Shown here one piece after another: positions 9,895-21,388 of a stretch of 64,000 nt of DNA (within the stretch, counting starts at the first letter, position 1; the number at the start of each line of letters is the position of its first letter). The translations under genes were made by a program, and so were the position numbers. Location: IMG/VR virus record IMGVR_UViG_3300032038_000025, positions 1 to 64,000 of that record. One strand, 5' to 3'. Source of the stretch: a virus. Lineage: Duplodnaviria; Caudoviricetes. The notes beneath the pieces were generated by a model, which saw nothing but the letters and a program-made list of their open reading frames with translations, ran no database searches and was not told the origin of the DNA.

Positions 9895-10211
9895 TGGCGG
9901 CGAAGGGCAGTATTTTAAAAGGAGAAATTTCTAAAAAGATTTTGGAAGTTTTTCCAAATAGTTTTTTATATAATGATGGAAAAGAAATTCGTATTAATGG
10001 GACAGAAGATGGGGCCCCTCTTCAGATAAAGGTTGTTCTTACAGCAGCAAAAGTTGCGGTTGAAGGCGGCCAAGATATTGCGCTTCCTGGCGAAGAAAAG
10101 GCGGCAGCCGCAGATGACTGGCCGACTAAGACTAATGAAAAGATTCCTCAAGAGCCATCTGCTGAGGAAAAAGAAAGACTTGCAAAGCTATTAAATAAAC
10201 TTGGTTTGTAA
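9894..10211 (+). CDS. hypothetical protein
   Basis: GGAG RBS, 105 aa. Confidence 0.75.
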   Translation: MAAKGSILKGEISKKILEVFPNSFLYNDGKEIRINGTEDGAPLQIKVVLTAAKVAVEGGQDIALPGEEKAAAADDWPTKTNEKIPQEPSAEEKERLAKLLNKLGL

Positions 10212-10223
10212 AGGAAAATAGAT

Positions 10224-10523
10224 ATGGGCATGGGAGTTCATTTATATCAAATAACATGTTGGCAGGGATCAAGCGGATTATGGTATGTGAATGATATTAA
10301 AAATTTAAGCGGCCGCTCTGCAAAATGGTATACTCCTATGCGTATGCTTGATCTTTCTGTTGAAGAATATATTGATTTATTAAAGACTTTTCACGCAGAA
10401 GGCATTTCTTATTATATGCCTTCTGATTATCTATATTTTTATTTCACAAAGGAAAAAGATGCAAAAGCATTTTGTTCTTTTATTAATAAAAAAGCAAAAT
10501 GTATCAACTATTGTTGTGCATAA
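10224..10523 (+). CDS. hypothetical protein
   Basis: ORF in operon. Confidence 0.7.
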   Translation: MGMGVHLYQITCWQGSSGLWYVNDIKNLSGRSAKWYTPMRMLDLSVEEYIDLLKTFHAEGISYYMPSDYLYFYFTKEKDAKAFCSFINKKAKCINYCCA

Positions 10524-10716
10524 ATATACGGATGCTGGCGGAGAACTTCTTCAGCCGCGGTAGAAAGAAGGCTCGGTAGGCTTTATCAGATTTGAGGCGT
10601 CCAGTGTAAATCTGTTTTAATACCTGAAAAAGGGACAAGAGTAGGGGTCTGCCAAACCAGAGTCCCTGAAACAGCTACGGCGCAAGTTAAGAGAAATGCT
10701 GTTAGGGCAGACATTT

Positions 10717-10789
10717 ATGACCATAGTCTAATAGGTTAAGACGGGAGTCTTTCAAGCTCTTAATGTGAGTTCAAATCTCACTGGTTGTA
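10717..10789 (+). tRNA. tRNA-Glu(TTC)
   Basis: Cloverleaf; anticodon loop CT-TTC-AA. Confidence 0.8.
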
Positions 10790-10800
10790 TTATTTTTTAT

Positions 10801-10888
10801 GTCGATGTGGCGGAGTGGCTGATCGCGGCGCCCTGCTAAGGCGTTTATCACATTTTGTGGTACAAAGGTTCAAATCCTTTCATCGACG
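10801..10888 (+). tRNA. tRNA-Ser(GCT)
   Basis: Cloverleaf with long variable arm. Confidence 0.9.
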
Positions 10889-10891
10889 TTT

Positions 10892-11448
10892 GCCGCGATA
10901 TTCTAATTGGTAAGGAGTCGGTCTTGAAATTTAACATTATAGTTTTAAAATAATGTAATGAATGATACTCAATATAAGGGTGCTTTAACATAGCAAAAAT
11001 GTTTTTTAAAGTGTATTGAAATGGGTTTTACAGTTTCTAAACCAATTTTTGATAATGCTAGATATGATTTTATTTTAGATACGGGAAATAATTTATTAAA
11101 AATACAAGTAAAAACTTCTCGTTGGAAAGATGAAGAACATTCTGGTTTTATATTTAATTGTTATAGTCAGCACTCTTTATCAACTGGTAATAAAGTAATG
11201 AAATATACAAAAAAAGAAATTGATTTTTTTATGACCGAACAAGAAGGAATATTTTATTTATATCCTGCTCCAGAATAGGGTTTAAAAGAAAAAACTTTAA
11301 GAATTTTACCTGCAAAATCTGGACAAGTTAAAAATATTTCTTTTGCAAAGGATTATATATTTGAGGAGGTTATAAAAGACTATTAATTGCAATTTCAAAA
11401 CCGATGTTCGTGATGAGCGGATTGGGGGTTCGAGTCCCTCTCGCGGCG
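10892..11448 (+). tRNA. tRNA-Ser(TGA) split in the anticodon loop by an insertion of about 470 nt
   Basis: 5' half GCCGCGA..TCGGT-CTTGAA and 3' half ACCGA..TCGCGGC-G reassemble into a class II cloverleaf. Confidence 0.85.
10958..11386 (+). CDS. PD-(D/E)XK homing endonuclease, I-Ssp6803I-like (2 in-frame TAG)
   Basis: KGALT*Q...KP..D..RYDFILD...KIQVKTS; 142 aa with read-through; lies inside tRNA-Ser. Confidence 0.85.
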
Positions 11449-11452
11449 TTGC

Positions 11453-11524
11453 AGTGCGCTAGTTCAGTGGTGAGAACGGCGGTCTTATAAACCGCTAATA
11501 CGAGTCCGATTCTCGTGCGCACTA
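11453..11524 (+). tRNA. tRNA-Ile(TAT)
   Basis: Cloverleaf; GCGGT-CTTATAA-ACCGC. Confidence 0.8.
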
Positions 11525-11550
11525 TTCAAATTAATGATATGGAGGTTTTT

Positions 11551-12429
11551 ATGACAAATGTAATTGAAGATAAGGATATCAAAAAAATATTAGAATCAGA
11601 CGTTACAGCGGTTAATTCTATAAAAACATATTTACAAGAAATTAGCCAATATAGCCTCCTATCAAAAGAAGAGGAAATTAAATTGGCGAAAGCCGCCGCC
11701 TCAGGTGATCAAAAGGCAAAGAATGATTTAATTAATCATAATCTTCGTTTAGTTGTTCATATAGCTAAACAATATATAGGACATGGTTTATCTTTTTTAG
11801 ATTTGATTCAAGAAGGGAATTTGGGTTTAATTAAGGCCGCAGATAAATATGATGTAACTAGGGGTTTTAAATTTTCTACTTATGCTACCTATTGGATAAA
11901 ACAAACCATATCATATGCGGTTATGAATCAAAGTAGAAATATTAGAACACCTGTTAATATTATTAAATTAATTAGTAATATTAAAAAAGCGCGTCAAGAT
12001 TTTCAAAAAACTTATGGTAAAGAAGCTACAGATCAAGAAATTGCAAAAATTTTAAACATTAGTGTAGATAAGATTAAAGAAACTTCTTTTTGGACAAATG
12101 ATACAATCTCATTAGATACATTAATTAGTGATGATGAAGAAGTTCCCATAGGATTTTTTATAAAAGATAAGTCTGCGGAGGACGCTTTTCTTTCTATTGA
12201 TGAAGAATATCAAAAAGATATAATTAAAACAGTTCTTAATACATTAAATGATAGAGAAAAATTTATTATTATTCAGCGGTTTGGGATAAATCAAGATAGA
12301 GCTAGAACTCTTGAAGAAATTGGCGGCGATCTTGGATTGAGTAGAGAACGAGTTCGTCAGTTAGAGGAAACCGCACTTAAAAAACTTCGAAACCCGCGTC
12401 GAGCAAATATATTAAAAGAATTTTTTTAA
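11551..12429 (+). CDS. RpoD-like sigma70 factor (regions 1.2-4)
   Basis: [55 protein letters not shown]. Confidence 0.95.
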
Positions 12430-14366: not shown

Positions 14367-14438
14367 CGCTCAGTGGTCAAGTGGTTAAGACGCCAGTCTC
14401 TAAAACTGGAAACTCGAGTTCGATCCTCGGATGAGCGA
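14367..14438 (+). tRNA. amber suppressor tRNA (CTA anticodon) with a tRNA-Glu-type body
   Basis: CCAGT-CT-CTA-AA-ACTGG (anticodon 14400-14402); D arm TGGTCAAGTGGTTAAGAC; 4-nt variable loop; C1:G72. Confidence 0.9.
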
Positions 14439-15212: not shown

Positions 15213-15218
15213 CTGTTT

Positions 15219-15633
15219 GCGGGCGTGGCGTAAGGGCAGCCGCACGGGACTTTTTCCTAACAAACTATAAAGGAGAGCCTTATAGTGGAAACATTATAAG
15301 TGTAGGTGGCTAATTCGGCGAAAGGTTAGGCAACGCCGAGCTAAATTAAAATAATAGTGCCAATGAAGGTTGGTTTGGGAGTTAACCCAAATAAGATGCA
15401 AGACAGGGCGGAGGTCGCGCCTCCATAAAACCTTAGATATAGGCGAGGGACTGACTAAGGGGAAACTATTATTTTATAAATGTGTAGAGACTATATACCA
15501 TCTACCTAAGTCAGAAATGATATGGTAAAGACATAGTCCAGACTACAACGCTAATGGGCGGCTATGGTGACATAGAGTAGTAAGAAAATCCCGGGGACGA
15601 GAGTCCGTGTGAGTTCGAATCTCACCGCCCGCA
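15219..15633 (+). tRNA. tRNA-Leu(TAA) containing a group I intron
   Basis: Exons CGGGA-CTT | AAAA-TCCCG rejoin to give the UAA anticodon. Confidence 0.85.
15253..15584 (+). mobile_element. group I intron without an ORF, after U34 of tRNA-Leu
   Basis: 5' exon ends in U, intron ends in G; core-like GTAGAGACTA and GACATAGTCC segments. Confidence 0.8.
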
Positions 15634-15639
15634 TTTTTT

Positions 15640-18205: not shown

Positions 18206-18212
18206 TTTATAT

Positions 18213-18343
18213 GGGAGATTAGGCTAATAGGTAAACCGCGTTATGTTAAAACATCGGTTTTGTAAAAACCCGAATCAGCAAATTTAAATGATAAACAGTT
18301 GCTTGGGGCGCACGTATTAGAGGTTCGAGTCCTCTATCTCCTA
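18213..18343 (+). tRNA. tRNA-Pro(GGG) with a 59-nt insertion in the anticodon stem
   Basis: Removing about 18242-18300 restores CGTGC-TTGGGGC-GCACG. Confidence 0.65.
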
Positions 18344-18346
18344 TTA

Positions 18347-18920: not shown

Positions 18921-19664
18921 ATGATTGGAATTTATAAAATTACAAATAAAATTAATGGATTAAGTTATATTGGACAAAGTGTTCATATTGAAAGACGTTT
19001 TATTGAACATTGTCTGCCATCAAAAACGTCAAAAATCTCTTGTGCAATTCAAGAATATGGAAAAGATAATTTTGATTTTTCTGTATTAGAAGAATGTTCT
19101 CAAAAGTAGTTAAATGATAGAGAACAATATTGGATTCAATATTTTAATACTATTGTACCTTATGGCTATAATGTAGCAGAAACTAATAGTGCTACTAATC
19201 ATACTGTTTATTACTATTATAATAAAGAACAGTTACAATCTATTTTAAAAGATTTATAGAATAATCAATATACATTAAAAGATATTGCGAAAAAATATAA
19301 TTTAAATATTAGTACCATTTCAAGAATTAATAAAGGTTTAATTCATTGGCAGCCTAATATTCAATATCCAATTAAAGATACTAATCGAAAGAATTTACCT
19401 AAAAAATATTGTATAGATTGTGGAATTGAAATTTCTTATACAGCAACTCGTTGTAATAAATGTGCTGCTAAACAAAGAACTATTGAAAAACCTATTAATC
19501 GAGAAGAATTAAAAAAATTAATTAGAAATACCCCTTTTACAACAATAGGAAAGCAATTTAATGTAACAGATAACGCAATACGAAAATGGTGTAAAAGTTA
19601 TAATCTTCCAACCACAAAAAAAGAAATTAAACAATATACTGAAAAAGAGTGGGAACAAATTTAA
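18921..19664 (+). CDS. free-standing GIY-YIG homing endonuclease (2 in-frame TAG)
   Basis: GIYKITNKING.SYIGQS..IERR; LNDREQYWI; Zn ribbon and HTH; 247 aa with read-through. Confidence 0.85.
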
Positions 19665-19673
19665 ATGCCACTT

Positions 19674-19758
19674 GAGGAAGTGACCGAGCTGGTTAAGGAG
19701 TTGGTCTGCAAAACCAATACAGTAGAAATACTCATGGGTTCAAATCCCATCTTCCTCT
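19674..19758 (+). tRNA. tRNA-Cys(GCA) with long variable arm
   Basis: TTGGT-CTGCAAA-ACCAA; AGTA-GAAA-TACT variable hairpin; U73. Confidence 0.8.
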
Positions 19759-19858
19759 TTGTTGATTTTAAATAAAAATTTTGATATAATATATATATAA
19801 GGTTATGAAAGATAACCTCAAACAAAAGTTTGAAAGAGATAAAAGGAGAAAAAATACT

Positions 19859-21388
19859 ATGAATACTTTTCTTAATCAGATGACCAAGGATAACAATATC
19901 ACTCGTACAGAAAATGGCGGCATTACCCGCAAGAGTACAGAATCTAAGGTACTTGATATGTTCGGAATGGGCGGTGCATATAGAAGTCGTTCTGATGCAG
20001 ATGTTATTCTTCTTTTTAAGAATGCATTTGAGGAAGATCGCCTTCTAGCTATGAAGTGTCTATTCTATCTGAGAGACATTCGCGGCGGCCAGGGTGAGAG
20101 GCGCTTCTTTAGAACCGCTTTTCGTTGGCTTTGTAACGAATATCCGCAGGTTGCTAAGGCAAATCTTGAGAATGTCAGTGAATATGGTCGTTGGGATGAT
20201 CTGATCTACGTTGCTGAAGGCACTCAGGTGCAGACCGCCGCATTTAATATTATCAAGCGTCAGCTGGCTCTTGATATCCAGTGTAAAACTCCGTCTCTTC
20301 TTGCAAAATGGATGCCTTCTCAGAATGCTTCTAATGCAGATACTAAAAGACTTGGGCATATTCTGGCAAATTTCTTAGGAATGACTAGCCGCGAGTATCG
20401 CAAGACTCTTTCTACTCTGCGTGAGCGTATTAATGTTCTTGAGAGACTGATGAGCGCAAACCGCTGGGATGAGATTGAGTTTGATAAGATTCCTTCTAAG
20501 GCAGGACTTATTTATCGTAATGCTTTTGCAAGACGAGATATTCTTGCTAAGAAGTATGAAACCTTTGCTAAGAGCAAGAGTACTGAAGTAAATGCAGATG
20601 CGCTGTATCCGCATGATATTGCCCACAGAGCATTTAAAATGTCTGTTAGTCTTGAAGATCCAACTCGTCTTATGCTTCAAAAGTATTGGGATAATCTCAA
20701 AGACTTTTATTGCGGTAGAGAGGAAAATGGTATTGCGGTTATTGATGTGTCTGGCTCTATGAGCGGAGTTCCGATGGAGGCCGCAGTTTCTATGGGAGCT
20801 TATATTGCAGATAAGGCACATGGTCCATTTGCAAATCATTTTATTACTTTTTCTGCTCACCCGCAGCTGGTGAAGTTTGAGGGAGTAGATATTGTTGATA
20901 AATTTAAGCGTTGTGTTCGTGCGGATTGGGGTATGAATACAAATGTGCAGGCAGTGTTTAATATGCTTTTAAATACTGCTAGGAGACAGGGCGTAAAGGC
21001 TGAAGATATGCCGACCAGAATTTATATCTTCTCTGATATGGAGTTTGATGAGTGTGTGTCTTTTGATCGCACCTCTTCTAATCGTTCTTATGATGATTAT
21101 TGGAACGGAAGATGGGATTCTTATCATACTATTAACTCTATTGACGAGGCAAACTCTGACCTTGAGAAGATCAAGTCAGAATGGGCGCATTATGGATATC
21201 AGATGCCTCAGATTATCTTTTGGAATCTTAATGCCAGAAATAATCGGATTCCTGCGATCGGCGATGGATTCAGCTATGTAAGCGGATTCTCCCCTTCCAT
21301 GATTGATTGCATCCTGAGCGGCAAGGATGGTTGGGATCTGATGGTTGAAAAGCTCATGTCTGAGCGCTATAAGGCGGTTACCGCATAA
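19859..21388 (+). CDS. DUF2828-family protein (TROVE/Ro60-like N-terminus plus vWA domain)
   Basis: TENG, RDIRGGQGERR, YGRWDD, AKWMP, MIDAS DVSGSM, FSDMEFD and FWNL motifs. Confidence 0.85.
   Translation: MNTFLNQMTKDNNITRTENGGITRKSTESKVLDMFGMGGAYRSRSDADVILLFKNAFEEDRLLAMKCLFYLRDIRGGQGERRFFRTAFRWLCNEYPQVAKANLENVSEYGRWDDLIYVAEGTQVQTAAFNIIKRQLALDIQCKTPSLLAKWMPSQNASNADTKRLGHILANFLGMTSREYRKTLSTLRERINVLERLMSANRWDEIEFDKIPSKAGLIYRNAFARRDILAKKYETFAKSKSTEVNADALYPHDIAHRAFKMSVSLEDPTRLMLQKYWDNLKDFYCGREENGIAVIDVSGSMSGVPMEAAVSMGAYIADKAHGPFANHFITFSAHPQLVKFEGVDIVDKFKRCVRADWGMNTNVQAVFNMLLNTARRQGVKAEDMPTRIYIFSDMEFDECVSFDRTSSNRSYDDYWNGRWDSYHTINSIDEANSDLEKIKSEWAHYGYQMPQIIFWNLNARNNRIPAIGDGFSYVSGFSPSMIDCILSGKDGWDLMVEKLMSERYKAVTA

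Follow-up and report, generated by a model that had tools for sequence, protein, structure and literature searches.

A class II tRNA-Ser(UGA) gene (10892–11448) in a phage tRNA array is interrupted within its anticodon loop by a 470-nt insert that belongs to an extensive family of mobile elements, each with a homing-endonuclease gene and no ribozyme. The insert is nearly all open reading frame, and its ends pair with the anticodon and with one another to form an RNA rod whose pairs covary between loci. Our leading explanation, held tentatively, is that the element is a selfish insertion using the tRNA as a shell, the tRNA-Ser not being restored; removal by protein enzymes is the main contender. 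The window, meaning the whole stretch of DNA analysed here, is AT-rich, holds an array of 24 tRNA genes and takes up the leading 64 kb of an IMG/VR phage record of 117.9 kb (G000; completeness 88%).

A tRNA-Ser gene split between positions 36 and 37

All features described are on the plus strand. The 5′ exon (10892–10927) provides the acceptor 5′ strand, the D arm, the anticodon stem 5′ strand (10918–10922) and C32 U33 U34 G35 A36 (10923–10927). The 3′ exon (11398–11448) provides A37 and A38, the anticodon stem 3′ strand (11400–11404), a long variable arm, the T arm, the acceptor 3′ strand and a discriminator G. Between them lies the intron-like mobile insert (10928–11397). That a nuclease ORF splits a tRNA-Ser, as a sequence-only reading of the window had it, is visible in the sequence and is upheld by joining the exons in silico at 36/37, which gives a canonical class II tRNA-Ser(UGA) (judged by ARAGORN), and by the minimum-energy fold of 10892–11448, in which the cloverleaf is present. 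Default ARAGORN and the Rfam tRNA model did not call the split gene.

Uninterrupted alleles, which the sequence-only reading had proposed looking for, were found for two tRNA species. A contig from run X7 joins 10926 to 11397, skipping the 470 nt with a 3-nt ambiguity. For tRNA-Ala(UGC), one contig (L006) carries the insert and its sister (L007) has an intact gene, whose 7-nt loop is reproduced only by an exon running through C36 and then A37. The junction is therefore 36/37 and the mature anticodon UGA. The earlier estimate of about 470 nt stands, but its placement at 37/38 does not; similarly, the insert is nearly all ORF as described, with flanks of 30 nt before the ATG and 11 nt after the TAA (41 non-coding nt) in place of 29 and 12. 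A UCA anticodon, suggested earlier from another choice of junction, is ruled out by the insert-free alleles, which give UGC (Ala) and UGA (Ser). With a mirror junction, moreover, the tRNA-Ala and tRNA-Val bodies would become Cys and Tyr decoders. Target-site duplication by a staggered cut predicts a direct TGA repeat; the actual repeat is inverted.

The insert encodes an I-Ssp6803I-type nuclease

The homing-endonuclease ORF (10958–11386; 142 codons plus TAA) belongs to the PD-(D/E)XK group and matches PF11645 across profile positions 2–136 of 138 (95.5 bits, E 3.6e-27) and I-Ssp6803I itself (PDB 2OST, E 1.3e-11), bearing out the family assignment first made from the sequence alone. D37, D41, Q50 and K52 are invariant across 25 homologues, and the YD...D and QVK motifs align with 2OST.

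The frame is open only if TAG is read through, at codon 12 (10991–10993) and at codon 107 (11276–11278). TAG is a sense codon elsewhere in this phage, with 11 in-frame TAGs in one NlpC/P60-type ORF, and a tRNA with anticodon CUA is encoded at 14367–14438; on these signs the phage recodes TAG. An N-terminal Glu, kept in most homologues, aligns with codon 12 of the window nuclease. We take this residue to be the catalytic Glu of I-Ssp6803I, and nuclease activity would then hinge on the amino acid inserted at the TAG. Both TAGs of one relative (L002) likewise align with Glu, and in three others (L026, L028 and L035) a TAG aligns with a conserved Gln; amber may accordingly be read as Glu in this phage and as Gln in relatives.

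Upstream of the ORF, a sigma-70 scan picks out TTGAAA (the anticodon loop itself), a 16-nt spacer and TAAAAT (10924–10951), ending 7 nt before the ATG. Many relatives have TAAAAA or TGAAAT 15–16 nt past TTGAAA or TTGAAT. The number of motifs in this region equals, and does not exceed, that in shuffled sequence. The motif pair could be an internal promoter of a near-leaderless nuclease message.

Neither a group I core nor a bulge–helix–bulge is found

Nucleases of this type normally sit in group I introns, and the sequence-only reading had noted that the insert leaves no room for one. The 41 non-coding nucleotides agree, and an Rfam scan of 10600–11700 gave no match to group I (RF00028) up to E=10. 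As a positive control, the identical scan recovers the group I intron in the tRNA-Leu(UAA) of the window over the full model (RF00028, 37.7 bits, E 4e-8). That gene (15218–15634) is split between U34 and A35 by a 332-nt ORF-less intron, which scores under the gathering score of 50 and goes unseen by default ARAGORN and by a gathering-threshold Rfam scan. No ribozyme family in Rfam matched any of 11 related loci either; thus a core overlapping the ORF, considered beforehand as the finding that would overturn the idea, was met in neither the window nor these relatives. RNAalifold on 19 aligned pre-tRNAs yields only the anticodon stem with its extension and the T arm, and no conserved structure within the ORF. 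The end signature of group I introns (U before the insert, G at its end) is also absent, the exon ending in A36 and the insert in A. These comparisons show an element apparently without the ability to self-splice.

The archaeal arrangement is equally lacking. The helix across the junctions is continuous and without bulges, both junctions lying at paired positions in 22 of 22 sequences, so that the earlier remark on the lack of a strict bulge–helix–bulge (BHB) is borne out. Searches of the phage record found neither EndA (PF01974) nor RtcB.

An RNA rod clamps the anticodon

TCGGTCTTGAAATT (10918–10931) pairs with AATTTCAAAACCGA (11391–11404) at 13 of 14 positions, the sole mismatch being C32·A38. 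The sequence-only reading had recognized this extension of the anticodon stem by the insert ends; the helix continues into a longer rod, about 26 bp in all (anticodon stem included), that closes the ORF into a loop. Within it, the clamp helix P1 is formed by 10924–10931 (U33, the anticodon UGA and insert nt 1–4) and 11391–11398 (insert nt −8 to −4, the anti-anticodon UCA at 11395–11397, and A37 at 11398).

In every locus compared, the last 3 nt of the insert pair with the anticodon. Among 22 distinct sequences, every one is paired at 33:37, at 34–36 against the anti-anticodon and at i1–i3, with i4 paired in 19. These seven consecutive pairs are thus kept 22/22, their variable positions showing several pair types including G–U, and they exceed the tRNA's own anticodon stem, which is kept in 19–22 of 22 per position. 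Pairing at i1–i4 stands at 97%. Exchanging partners among loci at random lowers it to 51%, with none of 5000 shuffles attaining the real figure; since the pairs are also kept with changes on both sides, the helix is not due to chance. The anti-anticodon tracks the identity of the tRNA, being UCA in Ser, GCA or GUA in Ala, GUA in Val, AUG in Met and AGC in Asn. In two cases (L041 and EFP01) it follows the anticodon through a G–U pair, which argues for pairing at the level of RNA rather than DNA. Each strand of the clamp holds one of the two junctions; 3 bp separate them, and the anticodon forms the 3′ overhang. The DNA cut of I-Ssp6803I is presumably a 3-nt 3′ stagger around the anticodon as well.

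Beyond the clamp, a 7×7-nt internal loop containing the stop codon leads to two covarying helices between the 5′ leader of the insert and the ORF tail. P2 pairs 10939–10946, in the leader, with 11376–11383, in the last ORF codons (RNAduplex). P3, present only in some relatives (the window, L002, L041 and L040), pairs 10950–10954, lying 4–8 nt before the start codon, with 11369–11373 (GUUAU). Cognate rod duplexes average −7.9 kcal/mol in RNAduplex against −5.0 for non-cognate combinations, a difference matched by 0 of 5000 permutations, and P2 covaries between loci (ATAGT/ACTAT, AGATTC/GAATCT, GGTTCT/AGAACC and AATAATCC/GGATTATT). This covariation, together with the G–U pairs, argues that the rod is selected at the RNA level, and it reaches the start-codon region.

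The GUUAU strand of P3 immediately follows a Shine–Dalgarno-like motif in the ORF tail, GAGGAGGT (11363–11370), which is conserved at the nucleotide level across the family. Codon choice reflects this: Glu is encoded by GAG 39 times and GAA 8 times in the last 12 codons, and by GAG 23 times and GAA 178 times elsewhere in the ORFs. The motif lies next to P3, across the rod from the start codon of the ORF, and it is not followed by any start codon within usable range.

A large family of mobile elements

In a collection of 90%-identity clusters, a search at E up to 1e-5 turns up 397 homologues of the nuclease, the best 120 of which are at least 67% identical to it. A profile search with a limit of E 0.001 extends this to 4112 clusters at 50% identity, some of which lie outside tRNAs. 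Twenty-three related loci share the layout of the window, with an insert of 459–485 nt, an ORF of 132–145 codons, about 23–59 nt before the start codon and 10–15 nt after the stop. The interrupted genes are tRNA-Ser(UGA), tRNA-Ala(UGC) (L006b, L041), tRNA-Val(UAC) (L030) and tRNA(CAU) (L040, whose contig reads TGA as Trp); the cultured Enterococcus phage EFP01 (NC_047796, about 105.2–105.8 kb) adds a further case in tRNA-Asn(GUU). We found no description of such a family of ribozyme-less mobile homing-endonuclease inserts in the literature.

Joining at 36/37 gives a tRNA called by ARAGORN in 19 of the 23 loci, two failures being contig-end cuts; the joined products of L017 and L021 are not called. 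L038/L039 (P0123) has a perfect 11-bp helix, but its joined tRNA carries two anticodon-stem mismatches and receives no ARAGORN call. The helix scan was anchored on ORFs, an unrestricted scan being drowned in chance matches from AT-rich DNA. An exact DNA pattern search of viral contigs gave no match, a second scan of viral contigs, with an alignment, added nothing to the two loci of the first, and a DNA search of the phage collection found no relative. Among 31 cultured Schiekvirus records the insert is present in one (EFP01), the rows listed for the others being flanks only, at 91–99% identity.

Presence and absence alleles, together with exon sequence that appears to have travelled with the insert, show the element to be mobile. 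The latter is seen in the Ala pair, where the T stems of the insert-carrying and empty alleles differ by paired changes, the pattern that co-conversion of exon sequence along with the insert would leave. Distances between ORFs show no correlation with distances between exons (Mantel r 0.15, p 0.14). Decay of the halves in relatives, named beforehand as a finding that would count against splicing, is not the general picture: acceptor stems are paired at 7/7 positions in 15 of 15 alleles, though all of these differ in sequence. Given the absence of co-divergence, intact halves are no proof of function. One copy of the locus (L031) is decayed, and more distant relatives of the nuclease are free-standing next to intact tRNA genes in the cultured phages PM10 and My1.

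A different kind of insert occurs in two of these contigs. In L028 (10–131) and L026 (821–975), tRNA-Met(CAU) genes are interrupted between U33 and C34 by inserts that lack an ORF and measure 45 and 79 nt. The two ends of each insert pair with one another in a 7–9-bp acceptor-like stem, beside which lie a T-arm-like hairpin and then A-C|CA. They look to be a mimic of a tRNA minihelix and are much too short for a group I intron. An intact tRNA-Met adjoins the split one in L028.

RNA repair genes and the tRNA complement

The earlier suggestion that the genome might encode RtcB or an RNA ligase proved half right, in that RtcB is absent and an RNA ligase is present with a kinase and a phosphoesterase. 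These genes lie side by side outside the window (74237–76940 of the phage record) and encode an Rnl ligase of 417 aa (PF09414 and PF21189, with an N-terminal PHA02142 OB domain), an AAA_33 kinase of 164 aa and a metallophosphoesterase of 183 aa. Two insert-carrying relatives (G001 and G002) also have the ligase, and the three ligase-bearing phages are related to one another. The RNA repair cassette is assigned to L033 too, and an NAD-dependent DNA ligase is found at about 82.7–84.7 kb.

The split tRNA-Ser is the sole decoder of UCN codons, with no spare copy, both in this 88% complete record and in G001, which is complete. Otherwise the two tRNA sets hold one U34 tRNA per four-codon box. The sequencing runs that we found hold contigs of relatives only, none with the junction in RNA; one RNA-library contig (X4) shows the 5′ junction of a relative unspliced, which is uninformative on splicing.

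Is the tRNA restored?

Two outcomes were put forward at the outset, a protein-spliced mobile intron and a selfish insertion that inactivates the tRNA. Both are still live, and sequence does not separate them.

We lean, with less than full conviction, towards the selfish insertion. By homology, the target of the PD-(D/E)XK nuclease in co-infecting relatives would be an intact tRNA gene, cut at its near-palindromic anticodon stem-loop; break repair would then copy the element in between positions 36 and 37, after which the interrupted tRNA-Ser would stay unrestored. The rod, with its clamp on the anticodon and its two leader/ORF-tail helices, would then serve the element itself. By re-closing the anticodon arm it could let the transcript fold like a tRNA and be trimmed out of the tRNA array, so that the nuclease message would form a closed loop held by a stable tRNA shell, part of its start region being base-paired. 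The phage would give up a dispensable tRNA, as phage tRNAs are, and leave UCN codons to the host. Counting in favour are the apparent lack of a self-splicing RNA, the mobility, the free-standing relatives, the decayed copy, the selection on the rod as RNA and the failure to find EndA or RtcB in the phage record; the intact halves may simply be young, because the insert moves horizontally. Counting against are the loss of the only UCN decoder in two phages, the perfect acceptor stems of all 15 alleles and the phage's RNA heal-and-seal set, with a ligase in two insert-bearing relatives. Furthermore, the seven invariant pairs bracketing the junctions look like a cleavage-site signal, and pairing of the start region would reduce, not increase, expression of the nuclease.

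Protein splicing is the main rival, and we give it a real if minority share of our confidence. The transcript would be cut at 36|i1 and a3|37, on opposite strands of the clamp and 3 bp apart with the anticodon left as a 3′ overhang, and the halves would be joined to restore tRNA-Ser(UGA). A phage RNA ligase (with kinase and phosphoesterase if the ends need healing) or a host RtcB could do the joining. One candidate cutter is the element's own nuclease, because the RNA cut sites match the positions at which an I-Ssp6803I-type enzyme is expected to cut DNA. The perfectly kept 7-bp core brackets both junctions, and the anti-anticodon tracks the anticodon in five tRNA species with G–U intermediates (L041, EFP01) that can pair only in RNA. 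Neither this phage nor G001 has a spare tRNA-Ser(UGA); the halves are intact in all 15 alleles, with a canonical in silico splice in 19 of 23 loci; and the Rnl, AAA_33 kinase and metallophosphoesterase are at hand at 74.2–76.9 kb, the ligase recurring in G001 and G002. Even the paired start of the ORF has a parallel, since phage T4 keeps ribosomes off unspliced intron RNA. However, we know of no protein-only tRNA splicing in bacteria or phages. The phage record yields no EndA and the insert no BHB, its helix lacking the bulge used by known splicing enzymes, and PD-(D/E)XK homing enzymes are DNases. The 3-nt stagger is unlike the 2 nt of RNase III, which as a cutter would leave a 6- or 8-nt loop. 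The ligases, too, may have another explanation, as RNA repair cassettes are common in large phages, where they counter anticodon nucleases, and the three phages that carry one here are mutually related.

A DNA-level or other route, taking two variants together, is improbable. In the first, the element would be excised from single-stranded DNA as an inverted-repeat hairpin mimicking the nuclease target; the left half and centre of the clamp do repeat the DNA target, but the G–U pairs in clamp and rod argue for RNA. In the second, the tRNA-trimming enzymes RNase P and RNase Z would remove the element because they take the anticodon arm, extended to 7 bp, for an acceptor stem. RNase P measures about 12 bp, a length that the extended arm and the D stem together match, and the ORF-less tRNA-Met inserts (L026, L028) mimic an acceptor stem and T arm. 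Yet the leader that RNase P needs unpaired is paired, RNase Z would cut after 34 and not 36, and the window insert has no T-arm mimic.

Least probable of all, and only barely worth entertaining, is a hidden RNA that splices or cleaves itself, whether the remnant of a group I intron or a small ribozyme of a new kind, overlapping the ORF or in the rod: the type member of the nuclease family does sit within a group I intron, in the anticodon loop of a tRNA gene (PMC1995217), the tRNA(CAU) member L040, and it only, has the group I-like exon-end U and insert-end G, and a nucleotide-level motif is conserved inside the ORF, but 12 loci gave no Rfam ribozyme match beside a positive control in the same window, RNAalifold finds no conserved ORF structure, the Ser, Ala and Val members have 5′ exons ending in A or C and inserts ending in A, and the rod is a plain helix without a catalytic pocket. 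The remainder of our confidence goes to something other than these four readings.

Relation to known systems

The closest precedent is the group I intron in tRNA-fMet of Synechocystis PCC 6803, which encodes I-Ssp6803I and measures 655 nt with a 150-aa ORF (PMC1995217, PMC3384342). It shares with the present insert the nuclease family (PF11645), a near-palindromic tRNA anticodon stem-loop as target, and a mobile insertion in the anticodon loop. The insert described here differs in having no ribozyme (470 nt, 41 of them non-coding), no exon-end U or terminal G, and an RNA rod that pairs its 3′ end with the anticodon, and in residing in phage tRNA arrays rather than a cyanobacterial chromosome.

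In layout the insert is nearer to archaeal BHB introns with LAGLIDADG homing-endonuclease genes, such as those in the rRNA of Desulfurococcus and Pyrobaculum; archaeal tRNA introns are spliced by EndA and RtcB. Here too there is little beyond an ORF and an exon–intron helix over both junctions, the anticodon region pairs with the intron, and mobility is by homing. Unlike theirs, the helix is continuous, with one C·A mismatch and no 3-nt bulges, and the junction is 36/37, with 3 bp between its two sides in place of a 4-bp helix and its bulges. EndA was not found in the phage record, nor is it, to our knowledge, known from bacteria.

Selfish nuclease genes that spread without a ribozyme are familiar in phages. 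The nrdA gene of phage Aeh1 is reportedly split by insertion of a homing-endonuclease gene without an intron. SegB of T4 is a free-standing homing endonuclease in a phage tRNA cluster (PMC2330249, as cited in PMC8421152). The present family resembles these in its occurrence in phage tRNA regions and in having relatives beside intact tRNA genes; it differs in that the gene lies within the tRNA, exactly past the anticodon, with a covarying rod that pairs with the exon. Lak megaphages, gut phages that recode TAG, have 'enigmatic' tRNA introns, present or absent between close relatives and assigned to no class in the available text of the paper, which for these introns mentions neither a nuclease ORF nor an anticodon clamp (PMC6784885).

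The element thus combines the nuclease of a bacterial group I intron with the layout of an archaeal mobile intron. In the textbook account, protein-spliced introns belong to archaea and eukaryotes. All tRNA introns of bacteria and their phages are, as far as we know, held to be self-splicing group I introns. If the insert is spliced, the route would be new and would account for the RNA ligases retained by phages and bacteria. The boldest form of this proposal, which we consider doubtful, is that phages have protein-only tRNA splicing: the clamp would mark two cuts 3 bp apart, made possibly by the element's PD-(D/E)XK nuclease on an RNA copy of its DNA target, and the phage ligase, kinase and phosphoesterase set or a host RtcB would reseal the anticodon loop. 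Were it true, tRNA introns would come in three kinds, no longer in the group I and BHB kinds alone, and the RNA ligases of bacteria and phages would gain a physiological role in splicing. If the insert is not spliced, a very large selfish gene family would be steadily disabling phage tRNA genes and using their fold as a shell around its message. That outcome would bear on how phage tRNA sets evolve and on tRNA annotation, because standard tools overlook such genes. Because EFP01 is in culture and has sister phages without the insert, such as iF6, the splicing question can be tested directly.

Further features of the array and its relatives

The array varies among close relatives: the insert-free contig from run X7, which extends over window positions 10000–11577, has 33 other bases in place of 10676–10884, the tract that holds tRNA-Glu and tRNA-Ser(GCU) in the window. 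A second homing-endonuclease ORF, of the GIY-YIG type (18921–19664; 247 codons, 2 in-frame TAGs), lies 10 nt upstream of an 85-nt tRNA-Cys (19674–19758). A tRNA-like gene at 18212–18344 carries about 57 nt of inserted sequence that includes a hairpin and ATCAGCAA; ARAGORN makes it an Asn(GUU) gene whose intron lies at 37/38, and the sequence-only reading called it Pro.

One relative of the insert (L035) is on JAFVUY010000119.1, a 158-kb contig in a 'Bacilli bacterium' MAG from sheep colon and the sole match in a species genome collection. The contig is probably a phage genome binned together with the bacterium, and as a clue to the host the MAG is at best a weak hint. Near the split tRNAs of three other relatives are weak matches to YrlA (Y RNA-like) of about 30 bits, below gathering (L014 2053–2167; L006 2450–2527; L004 2694–2812), and DUF2828 genes occur in the window (19805–21388) and in L010 (start about 3174). 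Together, these matches and genes hint at a Ro60/Y-RNA-type module in these phages.
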